Under the pieces are notes generated by a model, which was not told where the DNA came from, did not search any database, and was given only the letters and a program-made list of their open reading frames with translations. From Lophium mytilinum (lineage: Eukaryota), in NCBI GenBank assembly GCA_010093605.1, contig MU004192.1, forward strand, positions 1,693,464 through 1,757,463: 64,000 bases of DNA, written 5' to 3'. Positions within the stretch are counted from its first letter, which is position 1. The number at the start of each line of letters is the position of its first letter. The translations under genes were made by a program, and so were the position numbers. This document shows, piece after piece, positions 44,418 to 57,273 of this stretch.

Positions 44418-45973
44418 ACGCTGTATTCTCGTGGGGAAGACGTTCCTTTAGACGTGTAAGCTTTGTAGCTACTGCGTTTATTGAAGGCTAGGAGCTTGAA
44501 CTTACAGATGTATGAAGGGTTATGATAGAGTATAGAGCAGTATGGAAACTACCACTAGGACTTAAACAAATCGAGCGTTTAGCGTGACAGTCTATAATGA
44601 GGAAAAGGTAACGGAAAACCTACGACTCAATTTTTCCGTAAGCTGCAAAAGTGAGATGTTGGTTCCCAAATCCAAGCTGAACAAGATTTTTCCAAGCTCC
44701 GCGGCCATTATAAACGTTCCATACTCGTCAAGCCAGACTCCCATGCTCCATAGCCACCGCTTCAGACCGCTCCTCTTCAAATCGCAAGATTGAGCTTACT
44801 ACCCTTTACAATCTCGTGGGTATCTCGGCCGAGGAGGACCGCGAGGAAGTCGGAGGGATTCAAGGAAAGGGTAGGATGTATGCAAAGAGAAAAAAAGTCC
44901 CCCAAGCTCGAGCGCGGGAAGAACCACGCAATCGAGCGCAGACGTCCAGATATAAAAGCATTCAAAATTCTGCTCTCGCTAAAACCCTGTTGGAACGAAC
45001 AAGATATAACTCAATCGCTGGAGGTACCATTCATCACCAAAGGGCTGAGCTCAAGCGAATAGAAATTAGAAATCACCCGGCATTCAGAACCTTTCCGTTG
45101 CAAAGGAAGTGGTGATCGTTTTGATAACACTCATCGCCGATACCCCTTCTATGAATGGCTTCGCATACGGTGGCTCGATATTTATTTTGATCAAGATCGA
45201 GATGCCGGTCGGTGTAACGGTTAAAGTCGACTCTCTACTTAGCTAGACCAATCAAGACAGGACTAACACAACTCAGTTGACCTTTCACTTTTCTCGTTAT
45301 TCGACTGCGTGCGCAGAAGTTGGAGTGCACCGGCGCGGCGCGACTGCACATTGGCGAGACAACGCTGACTAGACCATCTTTGTCGGCAAAACTGAAGCTA
45401 TAGTCGCGTGCTCAGCCTGAAAAGACTCTACCAGTGGAACTCAATCGACTTTGTGAGATCAAGAGCATGTAAGGGATGCCCTGTTGCCCTGAAGAGACGT
45501 CTTAGCAATTTGCAGAGGAAAATGCCGCGATCAATTCGCGGAGGCCACGTCTAGTGCTTCCTATAGCAACGAGACGCGTGAACAAGGCTTCCGCCAAGTG
45601 CTACAAGTGTGGGGCTGCTAAATCTTGATGGGTTTCTGATGGAGTCGCGATTATAGATACGAACGAAGAAACCATCGGAGTGGACGAAACAACATCACTA
45701 CCAACAACGCTATCTGAATGAGCTATAGCACTCTTAGGGATCTTTAATGAGAGTCCACGATGTGAGAGTATATCCTTCATCATATATCCGGTGAGTTGAA
45801 AGGCGACTTCCGCTTTTGATTCTCTCTCTCAACTCAGTTTTCTCTCCCTGCGTCCGATCCACAAATCCTACTGATGTGGTTACCCAGTTTTGTATGAACA
45901 TACCTCTGCTTTGCATCTTGAGTTGCCGAAGTCTGTCCCTATCTATACATCATCCTTCATGCCGAAACACTTG

Positions 45974-48900
45974 CTAATGTAAGGCAAAGCTGCCCTCTCT
46001 TATCTTCTTACCATCTAACTTCATAGCTTCACCATGCATAAGATTGTGAATGTATGCCTCGCCAATCACCTTGTACGATCCACCATCAGTACTAGGGCGC
46101 AGAACATAGGGTACCCGACCCCCATCAAGAACACAGATAATATCCCCAGGAGCCGCACCCCCAGGAACGAGCCCGAGCCTACCATCGGCAGTACAGCAGA
46201 ACCGTCTGAACTGCGCCCAGCGGATGATAGCCGGCTCGTGGTAATTTCGTAGTCGAGACGTTGCCCACGCAGGATCTTTGAATTCGAGGAACCCATCGAG
46301 TGGGACATAGTTCCGCCATCCGTAGTCAGGGATGCGAAATCCTAGCTGAGTGGAAGCAACGGTGAAAGCATACAGCCACTTTCTTTTGAGTGGCTTCCCG
46401 CTAGCATCCAGGCCGCAAGATAGGGTAGGCCACCATATCCGGAAGACTTCGAAAGGTAGATCGCCTGTGCCCTGAGTGGTAATCATCAAGGTCTCCCTGA
46501 GCCAGTCATGGATGCGTGTGTAGGACGAGCCGGCCGAATCTGGTCGCCCGCTCGAATTTGAATTGTAATAAGGTACCATCGCGAAGTTCGCTACGGAACC
46601 TACATCACTTATTTTGTCCACCTGCCGGCCATGGACGCGGAGTTCAGAGTTGTTGTCTTCAAGAGAAACACGAGGCCATTTCCGCGTGCTCGAGACTCCT
46701 CGAACTGTTGATACGAAAGCCGAGCTATCCGCGTGGAACACGTCTCGTTGCTTCAGCCGAGCTGTGAGCCCTTCGGTCCATGAGGCTTCGCTAGCGGCGC
46801 TCGGTAGGTTAGGCATGACTGGCAGAGGGTCGGCCTTGTTAGGTCTAGCTAAATCGGGGACCCAAGATGGTAGTGATAGAGTAGGTGGCATCAGCGGGTC
46901 AGGTGTGAGTGCGAGAACCTGCAGATCGTGTCGTTTGGTAATGCTCCAGAGAGCAAACTGCTTGTAGACGTCTTCAATAGGACGCGAGTAGTCGGGCCTT
47001 ACCTCCCAATCGGTCGACTCGACATCTTTCGCCATGCCGACGAGTGCGAAGACCTTGTCCCTCGGATCGGAGCACTCGAAACCCCTAGTCAATAATACAA
47101 GGTCGAGTAAAGTGTGGCCGCTTGTTTTGCTTTGATGTTTGGACCTCATCAGATGCATAGTCAATAGGTTTGTTCGCGCAATTAGGGTGTCTGCCGGCGG
47201 CGGCCCCAGTTCATATGTTTCTTTCGCATATTGATGCGGTATGATGGGCCAGAGGAAATCGACGACGCCTTTGAAAACGTTCCAAGAGAGCTCCGATTTA
47301 CCGCACATTACGACCGCGCTTCGAGCACTCGCTAGCTCCTGGGTGACCCATATGCGCCGGAACCAAGAGTGACGAAGCAGCTCTGCGATTGGCTCTGTCC
47401 GTATTTTCCCGGAAATCAAGGGCGTCGAAGACTCGGGCATTTCGCGATCGATGGTAGGTTGTTCAACAAACGTCTTCTCGAAAAAGCTGTGAAAGTCTGC
47501 GTCCCAATCTTCCCAGTCCTCTACGTTAGACAGATATCCCAACTCTCGAGCCTCGTCTACCCAGCGAGCCATCTGATTTGGATACTCGGCACAAATTGCA
47601 CGGATCATCTTGAAAGCCCCACGATTGGCGTCTGTTTCTTTGCCTAGCCAGATCAAAACACGTTGCGCTGTAGAGTAAACCTCTCCTATCTGCTGTACTT
47701 GATGGGTTCGTTCTTTGATATCGGCTTGATTGATACAGAGCGCATCAGCCCAGACTACACGCTCTTGATCCGGAAGTCTCAGGCCCTCCAGCGCCTCGTG
47801 AAGATTGATCCCAATATCGACCTCCGAGTCCCCGCAGATGATCTCTCTCTGTCGGAGACTGTCTCCCCAAACGTAGGATAGTGCCTCGAACTGCGGATTG
47901 TCGGCTAATTCCACATGTCGTAGATCACAGAAAATCTTCTCGTCGTCTTTCCCGGGCTTGACAACGAGCACGCGGATTTCGCGTGGGACGAGTGGTTCGT
48001 ATTGGGGCGGTCTTCGTGGCTTGCGAGCTTCCTGCCATTCATGAAGTCTCAAGCCGACGGTGTTCCTGAAAGCGAGAGAAGCGATATAGAAGACTATGGC
48101 AACTGGAATACCAAGCATGATCCACTTGATCAGGAGGCCAATTTTGGTGCGCGGTTTCCGTGTGGAGGACGAGTATCTGCTGTACGTTGTGTCTACTTTT
48201 CCTCCTCTTATGTCTTTCTCTAATCGCTCGATGGCCCTTTCAATTAAGGATGCCATTTCGGGGATCCTGAAGTGCTCTCCTATCAGCTCGCCCATACCTG
48301 GGTGTAGTATCATAATGTCTTTCGTTTCGGTCTCAATCTTGAGCTTCCAGCGACCCGTGCGGAGTCTTTGATCAGCACCGGAGGACGAACCGTCTTGATG
48401 GATAAGATCGGCGCCGTATATCTTGTCCAGGTCCGCAGATGGCGAAGGTATAATAGCATCCTTCTTAAGAAGTAACTCGAGGTGGCGGGATCCATTATAT
48501 GCTACACACATCAGTCCCAACAGGGTCAGTTGAAGAAAGCAGCATACCTCGCCAATGCGACCATGCCCTGAATGCTAAGTAAAAAAGAGGGAAATTAGGT
48601 ATTCTTAATAAATTAGTGGTAGGCGTAGAAAAATGCTGTGTGCTCACTCACATTGGCACCAACGCAAAAGGCACCGCAAAAGGCAGACCAGCATAACTCC
48701 AAAACATCCGATCCGAATGCTTCAACTGGCCCTGCAGCGCGAACCGCTCCAATGTCTCCTTTACTTTCTCCTCGGTCATGAACCGTGCTGGAAATAACAC
48801 CTCGACATCCGTGACCTTCCCATCCACAACATTCGTGCGTAGTTTCTTGCTCAAAGGTGGGATACTCTTCAAACCCCATTCTTGATACGGGATCCGTTTC

Positions 48901-49103
48901 AGAAGCTGGTTACCTATGGTTGTTGATTTCTTCTTCCAACCGCCGGGCTTTTTTTCCCAAGCAACCCATGTCTGCCGCGCCTGGGCTTCTACGCGTTCCA
49001 CGAAGCGGTCAAAGAGGGAATAATGACTAGAACTGGGTTTGGAAATATGCTGGCAGTAGATGAGAGAGTGACGGGCGGAGATTGGAAGGAGAAAAATGCG
49101 CAT
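45974..49103 (-). CDS. Fusion protein: mitochondrial K+/H+ exchange-related (Mit_KHE1-like) domain + TM helix + HET-6-type heterokaryon incompatibility domain
   Basis: Exons 49103-48652, 48603-48548 and 48501-45974 join in frame to 1011 aa. N-part: MRIFLLPISARHSLIYCQ..W..WE..GWKKK..RIPYQEWGLKSIP..PFALVPI|IPNFPLFYLAFRAWSHWR. C-part: FEALSYVWGD, WADALCINQ, WFRRIWVTQE, DPRDKVFAL, LPSWVPD, IGEAYIHNLMHGE. Confidence 0.85.
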
Positions 49104-49309
49104 TTTGTGTCCTCTGCCACTGCGGGGAGCGGCAAGTTCGTGCAACAATGCAGTATTTGCGACTGCAACGTGGCATGTGTCTTTCCAGCTGCCAAGTAGC
49201 GTTCATTGGTATTATAGTCAAGCGCACAGTTCAGCCTTGTCGGGGTAAGGCAAGAGTTTGTGGGGGCCAAAAGCCCCACCCTCTCCTGAAACACGATAAA
49301 CCCCCTCCA

Positions 49310-50628
49310 CTAACCCAAAATCATGCCCGCTCCCCTGAACTTCTCGAAAGCGCCGAACCATGCCTCGTTCGGGTCTTTCTCTTCCTCAAATCCTGCCTTT
49401 CTGCACTTCTCCAAGCTCATTTGCCTGTCGAAGTCGAGATAAAAGCCATACGAATCTAAGAATTCCGCTTTCCACACGAGAACACCCATTCCCTTCTCTT
49501 TTAGCACTTTCTCGTGCTTCTGGACATATTTGCTGGGCAATAGAGACGCTTCATCAGACTCAGGAGCCGGGCCAATTCCCATAAGCCCGAACCAGGACGC
49601 GATCTTAGGCCATCGGTCTCGCATGCTTTCTGCTCTTGCACTATCTGCAACGTTGAAAAGCTGACCAGCTGATACCTCGGGGTGGAGCGAGGCCCAAATG
49701 GCGAGGCGGGCGATGGTAGAAGAGGATGCTTCGTTGAGGAGCGAGTTGTATGCGTTTTCGGTGCCGGGAAAAGCAACACTAGAGCCGGCACCTTCGACAT
49801 TGGCGTAGAGTGAGAGGTAGGTGGCCCAGTGGGCGGTCAGGTTATAGGTGGAGCCTGTTGGAGCAAATCCGATCTGTGATACAAAGGGTTAGTCATGGTC
49901 CGGGTTGGAGGAGTGGCAATGCTCACAACTGCGTCAGGACGAACGTCGCACCACGTCCATTTCTTACCTTCACTTTTCTCGGTAAGAATATTCTGGAACT
50001 CGGCGTAATGAACGCTGCTATCATTAGAACTGGGAAGGACCATATCCTCGGTGTACGGAGTTTTGAATGGTTTGGTTTCGAGGTGGATGCCGTAGCCCTA
50101 CTTCATCAGAACCTGGTTTTCCAGCTATCTCAGAACCGACAACGTACTTTCGTGCCGCTAGGAACCACGACGAAGCTCAGTTCTGGAGAAAGCTTTGTCA
50201 ATGCTCCTATTGCCCGCTCGAGCATTTTCGCATTTGCTTCTATTTCGATTTTCGGATTATCATCCTGCTTGTAAGCTGGCAATGTCAGCAGCGTCATATT
50301 TAACACGTTGAAGCCCCTCACCGAAGTAGTACACGTGCGTCACTGTCTCTATTCCGGCCACTTGCTCCCTCAACACCTCAGTAAATTCCTCCACAGTGCC
50401 AGACGCAAGATTAATCCCGGAAAGGAGCTGAAGTTCCGGCCGGGACGGATCTGGAGTTGGCCAGTACGAGTTCTCAATGCTAAGTGGTCGATTGACCAGA
50501 GCTGTTACCTTGGAAAAGGTGTTATCACCAGGGTAACCTTTCACGAGCTCATCGACGAGAGCCCAGCCAATCAGTCCGGAAGCGCCGAAGACTAGGGCGT
50601 GCGCACCGGAAGTTCTGGAGGTTGACAT
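49310..50628 (-). CDS. PRISE family (progesterone 5-beta-reductase/iridoid synthase-like; SirQ-like) reductase
   Basis: ALVFGASGLIG, VTHVYYF, PSGTK|GYG, WTWCDVRPDAV; three short introns. Confidence 0.82.
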
Positions 50629-51926
50629 TTTGAGACCGAGAATCTGAATTGAAACACTGAAGGAAAAAAAGGTGATACGAGATGGAGACGGCTGGAGTAG
50701 AGACGAAGTATATAAGATACTTTAGAAGGGTAAGTGATCCGGAAGCGGTCTAGCGTGTATTATTCGTCAAAATGACTCATTCCAGCATAGGGCTTCGGTT
50801 TCAGCAGACTACACCGAAGCAAGGTAATGACGAAGTTAGGGTTGGATACCATACTTCAATCAAGTCAATGCTGACCGTTAAAGAAATATATACTATCCGA
50901 TAAGAATGAACCAACGATGATTGGATACAACAGGTGGGGTATATTAATCCAGACTAACTACGGAGTACTCTCCTCGCCCCTCTCGATTTATCAAAATAGC
51001 TTACGAAAACATACATCCAGCGTCCATCACTCTCTATAGATAACTCGGACGTCCGAGGGTAGCAATCGTTACTCATGGACGAGGTATCTCAGATCTCGCG
51101 ATGTTAGTAGGTGCTCGACGCGTCCAGATCTATGGCATTTACGATCTCTACGTATCGAGCAACTTTTCGTCTACTATGCAAGTACTTGCGCTGATTTCAT
51201 CGTGTGTTTCCAAACTTCAGTATGCCTAAAGCTAGAGCCCTTGATGTCTGCTTTTTCTAGATTCGGGCCTTGACGATATCAGGAAGACGCCAGGAAACCT
51301 CGACCAAACCAGGACGTCCTCGATGTTGGCATCTGTCTTGTTGTCCATTCCAGTCATTCTTCTAAACTTTGATCTTTGTTAGCGACAGCAAGACCCCTCG
51401 CAAAGCCTCGGACTAGAGGTTGAGATAGACTTGTAAGACACGTGAACTGCACGTGATGTACCACCAAAAGCTTTGTAGAGCCACGGTTTTCGGCCCCTAA
51501 TGTTAGTCGTAAGCTTTACATCGAACTAAACGAAACTTTCACTCCTCACAAGAGGCCCAAACTTGATCCGACAGGGCGTAGAGGCAAACATTGTCAATCA
51601 AGAAAACTATCTCGCAGAACTTAAACCAAGTCCAAACTCGAGACTCTTGTAAGCAAGACCTCTCCCTTTGTATGCCCGACGAAGTTTAACATTTGTGCGC
51701 GGCACTCAATTACAGCAACATTCACGGAGATGGTAGTCGTCGGCGATCTTGCCACTCCGGTGAATGGGGATTCGTGAGCCCTAATGAACGTTCACCGCGA
51801 TGTCGTGACGGCTCTCAACCTATAAAGACTGCGTTGATACCGTAGGCTCTTCCACAGAACATCTCACAACACACCCGCCACACTACACCACCACCACATT
51901 ACACTAGCTTCGAACTCCAGCTCGCC

Positions 51927-53825
51927 ATGGAATCCACAATGGCACCCACAGCGGCACCCACCCTCCACACCATTCCAAACGAGATGCTATTGGAAATGTC
52001 ACAATGGATGTCTAACTCTGATCTCAAAAATCTCGTTCGGACGCACTCCAACATCCACGTATTCTTGCAGTCGGAGCTACACAAGCGTGCCCTTATGGAC
52101 AGGCCTGGCTGCAACCACTCTATCCGTTACCAGGCAGTCTGCACATGCGAGCGAATCCCAGCTCTTAAATGGGCTATTCGCAACGGTGACAGTCGTCTAC
52201 TCCAATACCTCCTCCATCACCAAGCGAGTGGCAAGTCTCAGAACGGGCATTGGCCGGTCGTTGATTGGGCGGTCGAGTTTGGCGAGTGCGAATCTGAACT
52301 CCTCATTGTGCTTCTACACTACGCACAGCGCCTTGGCAGAGACTGTTGGACTGAAAAACCCCAAACAATATCGGATGAGACAAGCTGTTTGAGACAAACC
52401 CATCTGTAGCCTATATCAGAAGAATCAACCCCCTCCTAGAGGAGGGTATGGGTTTCCGTATTTCAACAGAGACCGCAATATTGTCAAGGACCAGATGACG
52501 AGCTTGCTGGAGAGACATCTTGAGAACTTTGGTAGTTCTCGGGTACCAGTGGAGAAGTCCAAAACCCGAACTCGATTCTACTGGTCATATTTTCTGTCTA
52601 AAGCCGATTTGAAAGTGGTGAGTCTCATAATACACATTTAGGGATTGCACAGGTCATGATCATTCCTAACCTCTAACAGGTGAGATTGCTACTCCAGCTC
52701 GGAGCCAATCCTATGGCTTTGTCCCCGAGACGGAACTGGTCATATACCACTACCCATCCATTGACTCCTAGTCCCTACATTTTCGGAATCACGGTTCCGA
52801 AGATCCTCAAGGAGTTCATAAACCACGGAGTAAATCTCTCATGGTTCTCAGGCGCGGGTAACATACTATGGAACGCCGCGAGAAAAGCTGATTATCCCAT
52901 TGTCAAGACTCTGCTTCAAGCAGGGATGGATCCAAATGTTGGCGGGCCGACCAACATGTTTCATCCGCTGAATTGCGCACTGGATGTTCCTGTTAGAGGG
53001 TTTCTTGACACGACCGAGCGCCGAATGGTTGCAGAATTACTCATTGAGAAAGGCGCCGATCCCAATGTCCCTTTTCCCAACGGCGATTACCCAATACATA
53101 AAGTCGTCGTAGACTTTCAAAAGGGGTCCATAGGACACCTTATACCCGATATTTGCCACGACGAAGACTTTCAGAGGATTAGTCGAGAGCATTTCACGCT
53201 CCTCATATCTCGCTGCTCGAACATCGACGTGCAAAACAGCGCTGGGAAGACGGCTCTCCACGTAGCATTCGAACGTCAATGTTCGCATGGGTGCACTAGC
53301 GGCCTGGGTTATGTACAGATGCTGCTCGAAGCTGGGGCGGATCCCTTCCTGCCAGATCACTCGGGCGAAACGCCATACGAGTACGCTCTTGGTGAAGCCC
53401 ATTCCGACTGCTTCCACCCTTTCCTCCATTTCTTCACCTCGTGTGCGCTCAAAAGCAACCGCGTGCAGCTGATCCCGGCAAAGGTCGTGTACGAGCAAGC
53501 TCACGCCGAACACTGTCTCAAGCTGCACCCAAAGTACAGCTACTATGATGGACAGACACCATTGGATCGACACATCCGGTCAGACACGGTCAGAATATTC
53601 CTGGACGTTAAGCATGCCCTGGAGGAGTTTCCATGGACTGTGGGGCCGGTAGGACTAAAGAAGCTGTACCGGTCGTTCTGGGAGCAGCATGGTGGAGAAA
53701 TTTTGAACCCTGATTTCGAGGATGAGGTACAGATGGTAAAATGGGGTGAACTGTGCAAGGACTTTCCAGATTGGGCGCCGGGCGATTGGCAGAAATGGCG
53801 GGAGGATCAGGCGTGGATGAAGTAG
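51927..53825 (+). pseudogene. F-box-like + ankyrin-repeat gene, paralog of 859-2645, interrupted by an insertion
   Basis: LHTIPNEMLLEMSQWMSNSDLKNLVRTH matches the first copy. Same phase-0 intron position (52618-52679). Exon 1 is frameshifted by a 130-nt insertion, giving a premature stop at 52407-52409; removing it restores RLGRDRNIVKDQ (paralog: RLGKNRNISKSQ). Confidence 0.82.
52344..52468. mobile_element. Solo-LTR-like insertion (125 bp) with 5-bp target-site duplication
   Basis: Begins TGTTG and ends CAACA (inverted termini); flanked by GAGAC at 52339-52343 and 52469-52473; absent from the paralogous gene. Confidence 0.85.
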
Positions 53826-54868: not shown

Positions 54869-55756
54869 TTTGGTAAGGTTTTGAGGTTGTGAGGTTTTAC
54901 GCTTCGAAATTGAGCGAATGGGAAATGACGTGTATGGTATGGCTTGCTCTGAGAATGAACCTGAAGCCTTTATGTCGAGCGATAGAAGAGCAATCAGTGA
55001 CTAGCAAGTAGTGAGTGCTAAGAAGCAAGCAGCAATTATGTAGTATCCTGCTTGTTCTCACGCGGTCGATTGTATGCTTTCATGCTCTGGAAACTACCTC
55101 AGAAAGCATAAACTGCTTAGTTTCACCAAGTCGAAGCGGCTCTACTAAGTTCACACCCTAATGTCAACTCAATCCACGAATTAAGGTCCCACCATTGTCA
55201 CGTGACAAGTCCAGCCAAGTCCGAGATTTTGCGATTCTAGCAACTAAGTATGCTTACATGTCTACACTATGAGACTTCGATATAAAAATAGAAGGTTCCC
55301 AGGACTCTCAATGCTTTAATGCTGCACCTATACACCATGAGTTTATCTTTACCTAGTCCACATCCGATTAGCGGGGTGAGGCAACTAACAAATAAGCAGC
55401 ACCCCGCCTCCATCCTCTGACTACATTCATACATCCTTCATACACGTTGTCAAGACTCATCGTACGAAGGCATCGCAGCTGTGGAACGTTGAGCAAACCC
55501 AAATACGTGACTAAACCATTCTTGAGCAAAAAACCCCGCTATCTCAAACCCGAGATTTTCGTTTTCAAACCCGATTGTTCTTACTTCGTATATATATTTT
55601 GCGTCACTCGTCTATTTTCAGCGCTCTTTGGTCTCCAAGGATCTCTCTTGCAGTTTCATCACTCTCAACTCTTTGAATAAGAAGACTTCTTATATTCTAG
55701 ATTTCATTATCCCTCTCAAGCCTTATCATCTCGCGATCTAGTCCACCAACCTCACC

Positions 55757-57273
55757 ATGAGTCCCGGCACAATCCTTGACTCCAAACCCGAATCCCACCC
55801 CAATCGCTCATCATCCAAGCTCCCACAAACCCATACCCAACTTGACCGCCTCACCGCCGTGCTCGTTACCGCCCGCGAACGATACACCAGCGCCAACCCA
55901 ACGTCATCCCGCTTGCACGTAGAAGCAACATCGCACCTCCCTGGCGGCAACACCCGTTCAGTCCTCCATGCTTCTCCCTTCCCTCTTTACATGACTTCCG
56001 GAGCTGGTAACACGCTACTTGATGCTGACGGCCATCGTTATCTCGACCTCGTGGGTGATATGACCGCCGGCCTCTTCGGGCACTCGCAGCCCAAGATCCA
56101 AGAGACACTGGTCAAGACCATTTCCTCCGTAGGACTCAACCTCGGTGCTACGACGTCCGCAGAAAGCCAATTCGCCGCGGTCATTAAGGAGCGGGTGAAG
56201 AGTATTGAGCAGCTGCGCTTCTGTAACTCCGGGACGGAAGCGAACCTCTATGCCCTCAGCATTGCGAAGATCCACACCGGTCGCCGTAAAGTACTGGTCT
56301 TTAAAGGTGCGTACCACGGCGGCGTATTGGGGTTTGCGACAGGTGTAGCAGTCAACAACGTCGACCGGGACGAGTGGGTGATTGGAAAATACAACGATGT
56401 TGCGAGTCTGAGGGAGCTGGTGAGGCAGTACAAGGGCGAGTTGGCAGCCGTGCTAGTCGAGGGGATGATGGGGGCTGGGGGATGTATACCCGGATCAGCA
56501 GAATTCTTGCACGCTATACAAGAGGAGTGCAGATCGGTAAGTCAATTTGAAACTAATCTTCTCATCGCTCAATCCTCTACGAAACTCGAATGCATGCCTT
56601 GATGGAGATCCCGCAATACTAATCCCCGTCTCAGAACTCCCTTCTCTTCATCCTCGACGAAGTAATGACCTTCCGCCTCGCCCCCTCCGGCCTCCAATCT
56701 ACTATCCTGCACCCAACCACCAACCAGGCCCTGTCTCCCGACCTCACCACCCTCGGCAAAAACATCGCCGGCGGCATCGGAATAGGCGCTTTTGGCGGCC
56801 GCGCCGATCTGATGGCAGTCTACGACCCCCGCACGTCGTCAGTCCCTCACTCTGGCACTTTCAACAACAACTCGCTCGCAATGGCGTGTGGGCTCGTTGC
56901 CCTGCCATCCATCTACACGCCCGCCGCTTGTCTTGAGCTAAACGCGCTCGGCGACGAACTGCGCGCGAAGTTGAACGAGATCGGCGCGGGGACGAGGATG
57001 AAGGTCACAGGTGTCGGTGCGGTCAGCACGGTTCATTTTATGCCTGACCCCGCGGCCAAGATACGGAGTGTAGAGGATCTTGAGGCTCAGAAAGGAGGGA
57101 TAGAGGAATCATTGAGGGAGTTGTTCTACTTCTTCGCAATTGAGAAGGGATACTGGGTTGCAAGGCGGGGGATGACGAGTTTGATACTCGGCACGACGCG
57201 CGATGAGGTGGACGGGTTTCTGGGGATAGTAAGGGCATTCGTGGAGGAGTACCGGGATTCATTGACGATTTGA
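55757..57273 (+). CDS. Class III PLP-dependent aminotransferase (glutamate-1-semialdehyde aminomutase-like)
   Basis: LPGGNTRS, DADGHRYLD, RFCNSGTEA, AYHGG, ILDEVMT, PDLTTLGK (PLP Lys), HSGTFNNN; intron 56537-56634. Confidence 0.92.

Follow-up and report, generated by a model that had tools for sequence, protein, structure and literature searches.

The window analysed here, a stretch of 64,000 nucleotides from contig MU004192.1 of the fungus Lophium mytilinum (assembly GCA_010093605.1), contains on its minus strand, at positions 45974..49103, a gene which in all likelihood encodes one fused protein combining a Mit_KHE1 module (PF10173, the family of yeast Ydl183c), an added transmembrane (TM) helix and a HET domain (PF06985). 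The 1011 residues comprise, in this order, a complete Mit_KHE1, a TM helix of 25 residues, the HET domain and a long HET-associated C-terminal region. On the evidence of its sequence, this KHE1-TM-HET protein is probably a membrane protein with a probable mitochondrial location. We favour, with modest confidence, the explanation that it is a latent HET effector anchored in the mitochondrial membrane, in which a KHE1 paralogue has replaced a simple leader; an anchor or a sensor would be the best reading of that paralogue. The HET family is known, and the KHE1 anchor and the surrounding clade of anchored HET proteins appear undescribed.

A scan of open reading frames on the minus strand gives a frame of 866 codons from stop to stop (45974..48574) and, upstream, a second frame (48648-49202) in which the protein starts with MRIFLLPIS at the ATG at 49103. 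The KHE1 peptide ..IPEMASLIERAIERLEKDIR, the hydrophobic segment IGLLIKWIMLGIPVAIVFYIASLAF and the HET region all lie inside the 866-codon frame, which, in DNA of about 50% GC and with two Pfam domains, is far beyond what chance could produce. Removal of two short introns restores the family motif IIPNFPLFYLAFRAWSHWRAY, as read from the DNA, and yields a joined coding sequence of 3036 nt (1011 codons and a stop) with 0 internal stops. The 1011-residue model of the original prediction is reproduced exactly by this splicing, and its proposal of a single Mit_KHE1-TM-HET gene whose junction is independent of splicing is borne out by the open frame, the Pfam matches and the joined coding sequence. 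The KHE1 C-terminal helix, the TM helix and HET do share one uninterrupted frame, as it stated, but its count of 848 codons has to be corrected (866 codons, or 841 in exon 3). A pseudogene was rejected on account of the intact frame and the retention of all conserved residues.

With the splice consensus (including the CTRAY branch site) as a yardstick, the gene was resolved as follows, all parts being on the minus strand. Exon 1 (48652..49103, ATG at 49103-49101) encodes the first 150 residues plus two bases and covers Mit_KHE1 profile positions 1-158; it is based on the PF10173 match (8.6e-38), on 100% identity to the first 150 residues of P0121, an NCBI hypothetical protein of L. mytilinum (316 aa, PF10173 only), and on a contig of the public run X1 (49113-48652). 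Intron 1 (48604..48651, 48 nt, GTGAGT..CTAAT..AAG) is absent from the X1 contig, and its junction is also found in P0121. Exon 2 (48548..48603, 56 nt) holds the codons for IPNFPLFYLAFRAWSHWR, which is the KHE1 motif with the highest conservation and forms the second arm of the KHE1 proline-rich hydrophobic hairpin; its junction fits both P0121 and the family consensus (..PFFYLxFRAWSHWRAL..). Intron 2 (48502..48547, 46 nt, GTATGC..CTGAC..TAG) is also used in P0121. Exon 3 (45974..48501, stop at 45974-45976) holds in 841 whole codons the KHE1 C-terminal part, the TM helix, HET and the C-terminal region, and is followed by a probable 3' untranslated region (45755..45973), where an X1 contig reaches 45755 with no cover below.

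Both profiles expected by the original prediction were recovered above cut-off. PF10173 matches the N-terminus with 130.8 bits against a cut-off of 22.5 (E 8.6e-38, profile 1-158 of 188) in a scan that covered exon 1 only, the last 30 profile positions falling in exons 2-3; P0121, which is identical over residues 1-275, has PF10173 precomputed. On the long frame, PF06985 matches residues 229-413 (47336..47890, minus strand) with 104.5 bits against a cut-off of 22.5 (E 8.4e-30) and over the entire profile (1-146 of 146). In a 90-row alignment of HET relatives, all eight invariant columns are retained in the window protein (S208, Y209, W211, W250, D252, Q258, W384 and E388 in exon-3 numbering, the invariant glutamate E388 being residue 558 of the model), the 35 nearly invariant columns likewise fall at residues of this protein, and the family motifs ..ALSYVWG.., W.DALCINQ and W..R.W..QE are present. 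The post-HET region (45977..47335, minus strand) comprises a HET-associated beta-rich part and the conserved module ..RRF..G..GL.P....GD......G..VP.VLR.., and is conserved across the alignment. PF26639 (Het-6_barrel) is precomputed for most relatives, including the closest one, P0001 (see below); our own Pfam scan, whose model set probably lacked it, gave no such call for the window or for P0001. No NACHT/NB-ARC domain or C-terminal repeats were found, as Pfam on the 866-residue frame gives HET alone at E<=0.1. In HET, HET-associated region and C-terminal module the fusion resembles HET-6-like proteins (PF06985 and PF26639; N. crassa HET-6, P. anserina BH), about 85 of which are 25-34% identical to it; unlike in these, 373 residues precede its HET domain, and a TM helix and another Pfam domain lie among them.

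The same fusion exists outside Lophium. The best match of exon 3 is P0001, a protein of 1423 aa from Monosporascus sp. CRB-9-2 (62% identity, 97% coverage), for which PF10173 and PF06985 are precomputed and our own scan gave Mit_KHE1 at 5.8e-34 and HET at 8.2e-29. It shares 58% identity with the 1011-residue model over residues 1-985 of the latter, and the values for the single parts are 42-52% in KHE1, 41% in the TM region (12 of 29 residues), 47% in the TM-HET linker, 64% in HET and 72% in the remainder. Residues 953-1423 of P0001 form a FAD_binding_4 oxidase part with no counterpart in the window, and P0001 also lacks the last 30 residues or so of the HET protein; the model probably combines two adjacent genes that the gene caller failed to separate. 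A FAD-binding domain was accordingly rejected as a part of the fusion, this unmatched segment being probably either the product of a merged model or specific to Monosporascus.

A second, very probable case is that of Mytilinidion resinicola. The KHE1 C-terminal part, TM helix and linker (exon-3 residues 1-205) were compared exhaustively by HMMER with 1.84 billion representatives, and 32 matches were returned, of which 30 are KHE1 C-terminal parts, all of at most 380 aa. The other two are P0227 (555 aa), which matches the juxtamembrane linker of the fusion, and P0204 (207 aa), which starts inside the TM helix and runs into HET, with 64% identity over query residues 136-205 and 78% over its whole row in the 90-row alignment. 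P0204 comes from M. resinicola, as does P0122, a KHE1 of 273 aa which is 75-82% identical to the window KHE1 and ends 11 residues past ..EKDIR; both are partial, have consecutive accessions and lie on the same 1.56-Mb contig. From these sequences, M. resinicola very probably carries the same fusion locus, split into two gene models. P0001 is missing from the 32 matches although it contains the query region (its cluster representative may differ), and a word-indexed search for the KHE1 C-terminal part and TM helix in proteins of 462-1472 aa returned none but also missed P0001, a sure match, so that the negatives of both searches for long multi-domain proteins need caution. A metagenome scan gave three loci (L001-L003), which are ordinary HET relatives with no KHE1 or TM match upstream; they are near-identical to one another, and their HET protein and that of the window share 25% identity from model residue 357 onward, with 48% in the best-matching segment.

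Transcript evidence comes from X1, in which 91% of the sampled words are present and whose data are stored as contigs. Five pieces fall on 45400-49700, with 0 differing letters. One joins 49113-48652 to 48603-48574, so that intron 1 is gone at its exact GT..AG borders and 48 nt are skipped; another (48498-47107, 1392 nt, gapless) runs through the KHE1 C-terminal part, the third intron annotated in P0121, the TM helix and the whole Pfam HET match; two more cover 47079-46437 and 46429-45755. The fifth (49325-49700) belongs to the neighbouring upstream gene and is separated by 212 bases from the end of the fusion transcript at 49113. Cover stops at 49113 and 45755, with none at 49144-49287 or below 45755, and the gaps at 46430-46436, 47080-47106 and 48499-48573 carry no weight either way. 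Because intron 1 is spliced at its exact borders and cover stops at the gene ends, we take X1 as cDNA-derived; the fusion gene is very probably transcribed as one message. A misassembly at the junction, which the original prediction had named as a possible objection, was rejected, the contigs being identical to the window and that of 47107-48498 unbroken.

The deposited annotation differs from this model. P0121 uses introns 1 and 2 and is 100% identical over exon 1, but after ..GGKVDTT it continues in an out-of-frame tail of 41 residues. Comparison with the window places a third "intron" at 48032..48185 (minus strand, 154 nt, GTACAG..CAG, frameshifting), which we read as coding. It has a poor donor (GTACAG) and no visible CTRAY branch site, it is three times as long as the good introns, and it encodes the conserved TM helix, which is removed with it in P0121. 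The deposited KHE1-only model of 316 aa is most likely a gene-calling artefact. The homologue search, which covered proteins of 462-1472 aa, brought up no database entry identical to the HET part.

This annotation is nevertheless what would be expected if the locus made two products, namely a normal stand-alone KHE1, ending as in P0121 or at some other early point, and a HET protein translated from an internal start or not made at all, the long frame being incidental read-through. Such a view, which we consider improbable, also agrees with the two partial proteins annotated at the Mytilinidion locus, with the lack of a second Lophium KHE1 among 83 KHE1 homologues, and with some features of X1 that weigh against a single message: the run is not on record as RNA, its contigs leave intron 2 unbridged (they end at 48574 and 48498), and they drop rare variants, show presence and not absence and cannot mark transcript ends, so that a minor spliced isoform or an internal TM-HET transcript is possible. 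Against two products, the KHE1 frame meets no stop for 740 further codons unless the frameshifting splice is used, and the sole contig across that site is unspliced. The sequence to be spliced out encodes a TM helix conserved in Monosporascus, whose protein aligns in a single frame over 985 residues, and the splice itself combines a poor donor with a tail that has no relatives and is unlike canonical KHE1 tails. Finally, both Mytilinidion models are partial, one without a proper end and the other without a proper start, as for a split single gene.

The whole Mit_KHE1 domain of the fusion protein spans 48206..49103 (minus strand, model residues 1-268, introns inside the span). Its start fits the family consensus MR(I/L)FLLPIS. 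Of 54 columns with a conservation of 90% or more among 40 canonical KHE1s, the domain retains 48, and the canonical rows themselves retain 42-54 (median 53). The proline-rich hydrophobic segment (48564..48704, minus strand, model residues 134-164, span including intron 1) contains 7 prolines and has a hydropathy peak of 1.4-1.7. In its full domain, strong Pfam score, proline-rich segment and conserved columns the module is like other members of PF10173; unlike them, the fused modules sit on a separate long branch, and the fusion, with 1011 aa, has a TM helix and HET where canonical stand-alone members (264-380 aa) have an acidic helical tail. The stand-alone state of KHE1 elsewhere, assumed by the original prediction, is supported by the searches: PF10173 is the sole domain in 83/83 other homologues (264-2000 aa), and the 30/30 KHE1 C-terminal matches from the 1.84 billion representatives do not exceed 380 aa.

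A KHE1 tree of 38 rows, made by a quick method from 36 hand-picked named homologues of the 83 together with the window and P0001, groups the window, Mytilinidion and Monosporascus modules in one clade (SH-aLRT 99, starred) with a long stem of 0.67. This clade lies inside a Dothideomycete group (support 93, without a star), apart from the Xylariales KHE1s. Forcing the Monosporascus module to group with nine Sordariomycete KHE1 rows, a taxonomic constraint chosen after the tree was seen, was rejected by the approximately unbiased (AU) test (p-AU 6e-5, at a cost of 45.6 log-likelihood units). The KHE1 module appears to represent a paralogous lineage, diverged but intact, with a single fusion event in its history, and the Monosporascus fusion could be due either to transfer or to old descent with loss. 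The separate, long-branched clade is the sole basis for regarding KHE1 as a putative duplicate in this genome. The 83 homologues contained no further KHE1 from Lophium or Mytilinidion, which is weak evidence, no whole-genome search having been made.

Two other explanations give the KHE1 module a different role. If KHE1 were an integrated decoy or a guard, it would sit in, or mimic, the K+/H+ exchange machinery (the Mdm38/LETM1 system), and a toxin, ionophore or parasite disturbing this machinery would release or activate HET. The 48 of 54 conserved columns exceed the needs of a bare anchor, a whole domain of 268 residues stands in place of the simple leader of the relatives, Ydl183c acts genetically with Mdm38 and Mrs7 (PMC3362517), and non-HET parts of HET proteins are described as determining recognition in the case of het-B (PMC10890737). 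However, KHE1 is the least conserved part between Lophium and Monosporascus (42-52%, versus 64-72% for HET and the remainder), the P0001 model lacks a part of the hairpin, and the present evidence fits a sensor and an anchor alike; we judge a decoy or guard unlikely. A housekeeping KHE1 coupled to an enzymatic or regulatory HET unrelated to death, for instance in a local metabolism of nucleotides or NAD that is linked to ion exchange, seems very improbable to us. Most HET-domain genes are without a known incompatibility role (PMC10890737, PMC10197012), and the genome may have no KHE1 other than the fused copy. But the HET and C-terminal parts are ordinary HET-6-like ones with all invariant residues, death induction is the only function described as shown for the HET domain (PMC12881547), and the fusion is very rare (P0001 and the split Mytilinidion pair, with no other long match to the KHE1 C-terminal part), unlike a core function.

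Hydropathy of the 1011-residue model reveals two hydrophobic stretches, the KHE1 segment at 134-164 and a much stronger one at 290-314. The latter is the extra TM helix IGLLIKWIMLGIPVAIVFYIASLAF (48068..48142, minus strand), with basic flanks and a Kyte-Doolittle 19-residue mean of up to 2.24. An AlphaFold model of P0122, an orthologue with 78% identity, built from 41 sequences (pLDDT 87.5, pTM 0.82) has strands at 2-7, 13-18, 100-104 and 186-190 and a long helical hairpin (H111-147/H155-182), at whose turn or tip the hydrophobic prolines are placed; in a structure search, its matches were limited to generic hairpins over 105-189. In the model of the 841 residues of exon 3 (90 sequences, pLDDT 78.3), a helix at 119-158 holds the TM segment and is followed by a confident HET domain (pLDDT mostly above 90). 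Since the strands before and after the hairpin share one confident domain, we infer that the two soluble parts of KHE1 would share one face of the membrane, into which the tip of the hairpin would dip.

The HET relatives supply circumstantial support for the idea of the original prediction that KHE1 serves as a targeting module, as the nearest ones appear to carry a leader and a hydrophobic segment in the same place. The HET tree (90 rows, quick method, LG+G4, columns from HET onward only, with many long branches flagged) nests the three fusion rows (support 100) in a clade of 13 rows (95) and in one of 18 rows (97), all three values being starred. The nearest relatives have no KHE1; their N-termini are basic and free of acidic residues and lead into a hydrophobic segment. 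We defined as presequence-like, before the tree was made, any row in which HET is preceded by 60 residues or more, the hydrophobic peak reaches 1.0 or above and the first 40 residues include no more than one acidic and no fewer than five basic ones. Nine of the 18 clade rows comply, as against 0/72 outside: P0013 (Massarina), P0227, P0010 (Ilyonectria) and six Trichoderma rows. Over the whole alignment, the stretch before the HET block is shorter than 60 residues in 63 of the 90 rows, and the median HET start is residue 60 among 120 homologues.

The leaders of these relatives are 40-80 residues long, Arg/Ser-rich and acid-free, and precede a hydrophobic segment and a basic linker before HET, as in MSFLLHRPIGRRRVSRRYLFHVKRLAHSY... 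and MKRSLFSFSQSFKSSHRSRYTACLRPVVRSTQILR...QRAYSTSH. Judged by presequence traits and the R-x-Y-S type of cleavage motif, they look like a mitochondrial presequence with a stop-transfer-type segment, and the members of this group (P0002-P0008, P0010, P0013 and P0227) look like mitochondrial inner-membrane or intermembrane-space proteins. These leader-TM-HET proteins (P0013 of Massarina eburnea, P0002-P0008 of Trichoderma spp., P0010 of Ilyonectria sp. and P0227) are nearest to the fusion in the HET tree and share with it the order of anchor, basic juxtamembrane linker, HET and C-terminal region, the homology extending into the linker in P0227. They differ from it in having a leader of 40-80 residues instead of a whole KHE1, and a hydrophobic peak of 1.0-1.8 versus 2.24. 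No published description of this subgroup was found, judging by titles and abstract openings of the papers listed. In P0012 (Aspergillus nanangensis), a major-facilitator transporter with 12 TM segments is joined to a HET protein of the same family; this could again reflect merging of genes in the model, or else a second type of membrane tether for HET.

The same N-termini could instead be signal anchors, and the KHE1 part could have lost its mitochondrial address, so that the protein would reside in another compartment (endoplasmic reticulum (ER), plasma membrane or vacuole). Hydrophobic N-terminal segments also occur in the HET rows classed as TM_only (P0033, P0071, P0077 and P0094), and the fused KHE1 lineage has a long branch. 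On the other hand, leaders of 40-80 residues that are Arg/Ser-rich and free of acidic residues suit presequences better, as a general rule, than ER signal anchors, and the KHE1 core is largely intact. We give another compartment a small chance.

We therefore return to the mitochondrial anchor as the explanation that we prefer. The ancestor would be a HET lineage already anchored at its N-terminus by a presequence-like leader and a hydrophobic segment; a diverged KHE1 paralogue would have taken over the anchor role once, and the fusion would then have been kept in the Mytilinidiaceae and, by old descent with loss or by transfer, in one Monosporascus. The KHE1 part would bring the protein to the mitochondrial membrane and hold it there. 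The added helix is predicted to cross the membrane once, which would put HET on the side opposite to the KHE1 globule; Mdm38, the genetic partner of Ydl183c, faces the matrix, and with a matrix-facing KHE1 the HET domain would be in the intermembrane space. A relative with a leader and a stop-transfer segment would share this orientation of HET. Going by its family, HET would be a latent cell-death or immune effector, which anchoring might keep off its targets or informed of the mitochondrial state.

Several observations weigh against this explanation. A review calls the hydrophobic segment of KHE1 a single transmembrane domain (PMC3362517), which, if right, would put HET and the KHE1 N-terminal part together on one side. 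At the N-terminus of the window protein, a basic, acid-free amphipathic leader was not found ahead of the TM helix, which is present: the KHE1 fold starts there and is modelled as beta strands of a folded domain, not as a cleavable helix. In the P0001 model some 30 residues of the hydrophobic hairpin are missing, either because the model is in error or because they were truly deleted. The only KHE1 copy of this genome may be the fused one, in which case a housekeeping role would come first. Among the HET relatives, "presequence-like" denotes our own rule and not a localisation predictor; six of the nine complying rows are close Trichoderma relatives, so that some three lineages can be counted as independent; N-termini are short in six rows of the 18-row clade, and NCBI labels P0009 as partial; and 3/78 other rows have basic, acid-poor starts while failing the rest of the rule. 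Finally, for HET itself, structure and sequence searches yielded no TIR-like match but carry no weight either way on a TIR relation, HET not having been folded alone: Foldseek with the 841-residue exon-3 model gave 0 matches to solved structures at E<=0.001, a broader structural alignment of the same model aligned the long helix at 75-161 only, and the 90-sequence HET profile had one irrelevant match among PDB sequences (E 0.33).

What is described for the two families agrees with such a combination. Ydl183c is reported as a mitochondrial membrane protein of 37 kDa and a multicopy suppressor of mdm38 (PMC3362517); in PF10173, this location and a part in K+/H+ exchange are described for the yeast member alone. 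The HET domain, when overexpressed, is described as sufficient for death and has been proposed to be a distant relative of TIR, the literature being the sole source for the TIR relation stated in the original prediction; according to the same sources, incompatibility genes are a small fraction of HET genes and non-NLR HET proteins have no assigned architectures (PMC12881547, PMC10890737, PMC10197012), and two of these, as reviews, call the killing mechanism unknown (PMC10890737, PMC10197012). That the original prediction did not recognise the architecture as described agrees with the literature, in which no paper joining KHE1/YDL183c with HET was found (mostly from titles and abstract openings), but P0001 is already in NCBI, uncommented. 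Likewise, no paper on a mitochondrial HET protein was found in titles and abstract openings of the papers listed.

The nearest parallels in layout are found among animal proteins. AIF, Smac/DIABLO, HtrA2, PINK1 and PGAM5 are death factors and sensors of the intermembrane space with leaders and TM anchors. With these, the fusion would have in common a targeting part, one TM segment and an effector acting after release or failed import; the proteins are otherwise unrelated to it. SARM1 bears a sequence for mitochondrial targeting, and a part of it is described in the intermembrane space and the inner membrane (PMC12165793). It resembles the proposed fusion effector as a death-executing domain of TIR type tethered to mitochondria, downstream of mitochondrial damage (PMC12165793). 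It differs in its ARM and SAM domains and in having no TM helix or KHE1, shares no sequence or detected fold relation with the fusion, and NADase activity is described as never shown for HET (PMC10197012).

The surroundings of the gene are ordinary. A scan of open frames with Pfam revealed a cytochrome P450 (42836-44233, plus strand), a PRISE-like Rossmann-fold reductase with at least two exons (49310-50721, minus strand; 7.8e-32 and 4.5e-24, with X1 contig cover), an ankyrin-repeat protein (52677-53825, plus strand) and a class-III aminotransferase (55742-57273, plus strand). The neighbouring frames scanned included no NLR, no transposon and no further HET gene.

Filamentous fungi have few domains as abundant as HET and few that are as poorly understood, and an organelle-type anchor on a HET lineage would give it a concrete and testable place of action. 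In three fungi this anchor would be a whole protein related to mitochondrial K+/H+ exchange, in parallel with the mitochondrion-associated TIR and death factors of animals, and the architecture points to a possible death effector stationed at the mitochondrion. The fusion is overlooked or obscured in censuses of domain architecture because the deposited gene models are probably wrong, that of Lophium being truncated by a false intron, that of Mytilinidion split and that of Monosporascus probably merged with a FAD-oxidase gene. At its furthest, and we hold this to be rather unlikely, the system would be a fungal "mitochondrial guard", in which a TIR-like HET death domain is wired to an inner-membrane copy of a K+/H+-exchange component so that an attack on ion homeostasis or import leads to regulated death, the leader-TM-HET relatives of Trichoderma, Ilyonectria and Massarina forming an unrecognised class of mitochondrion-resident effectors. 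If this were true, its triggers would be ionophore antibiotics, toxins or mycoparasites, and the guard and its relatives would be a fungal counterpart of SARM1 or of PINK1-type surveillance and give the HET family its first organelle address.

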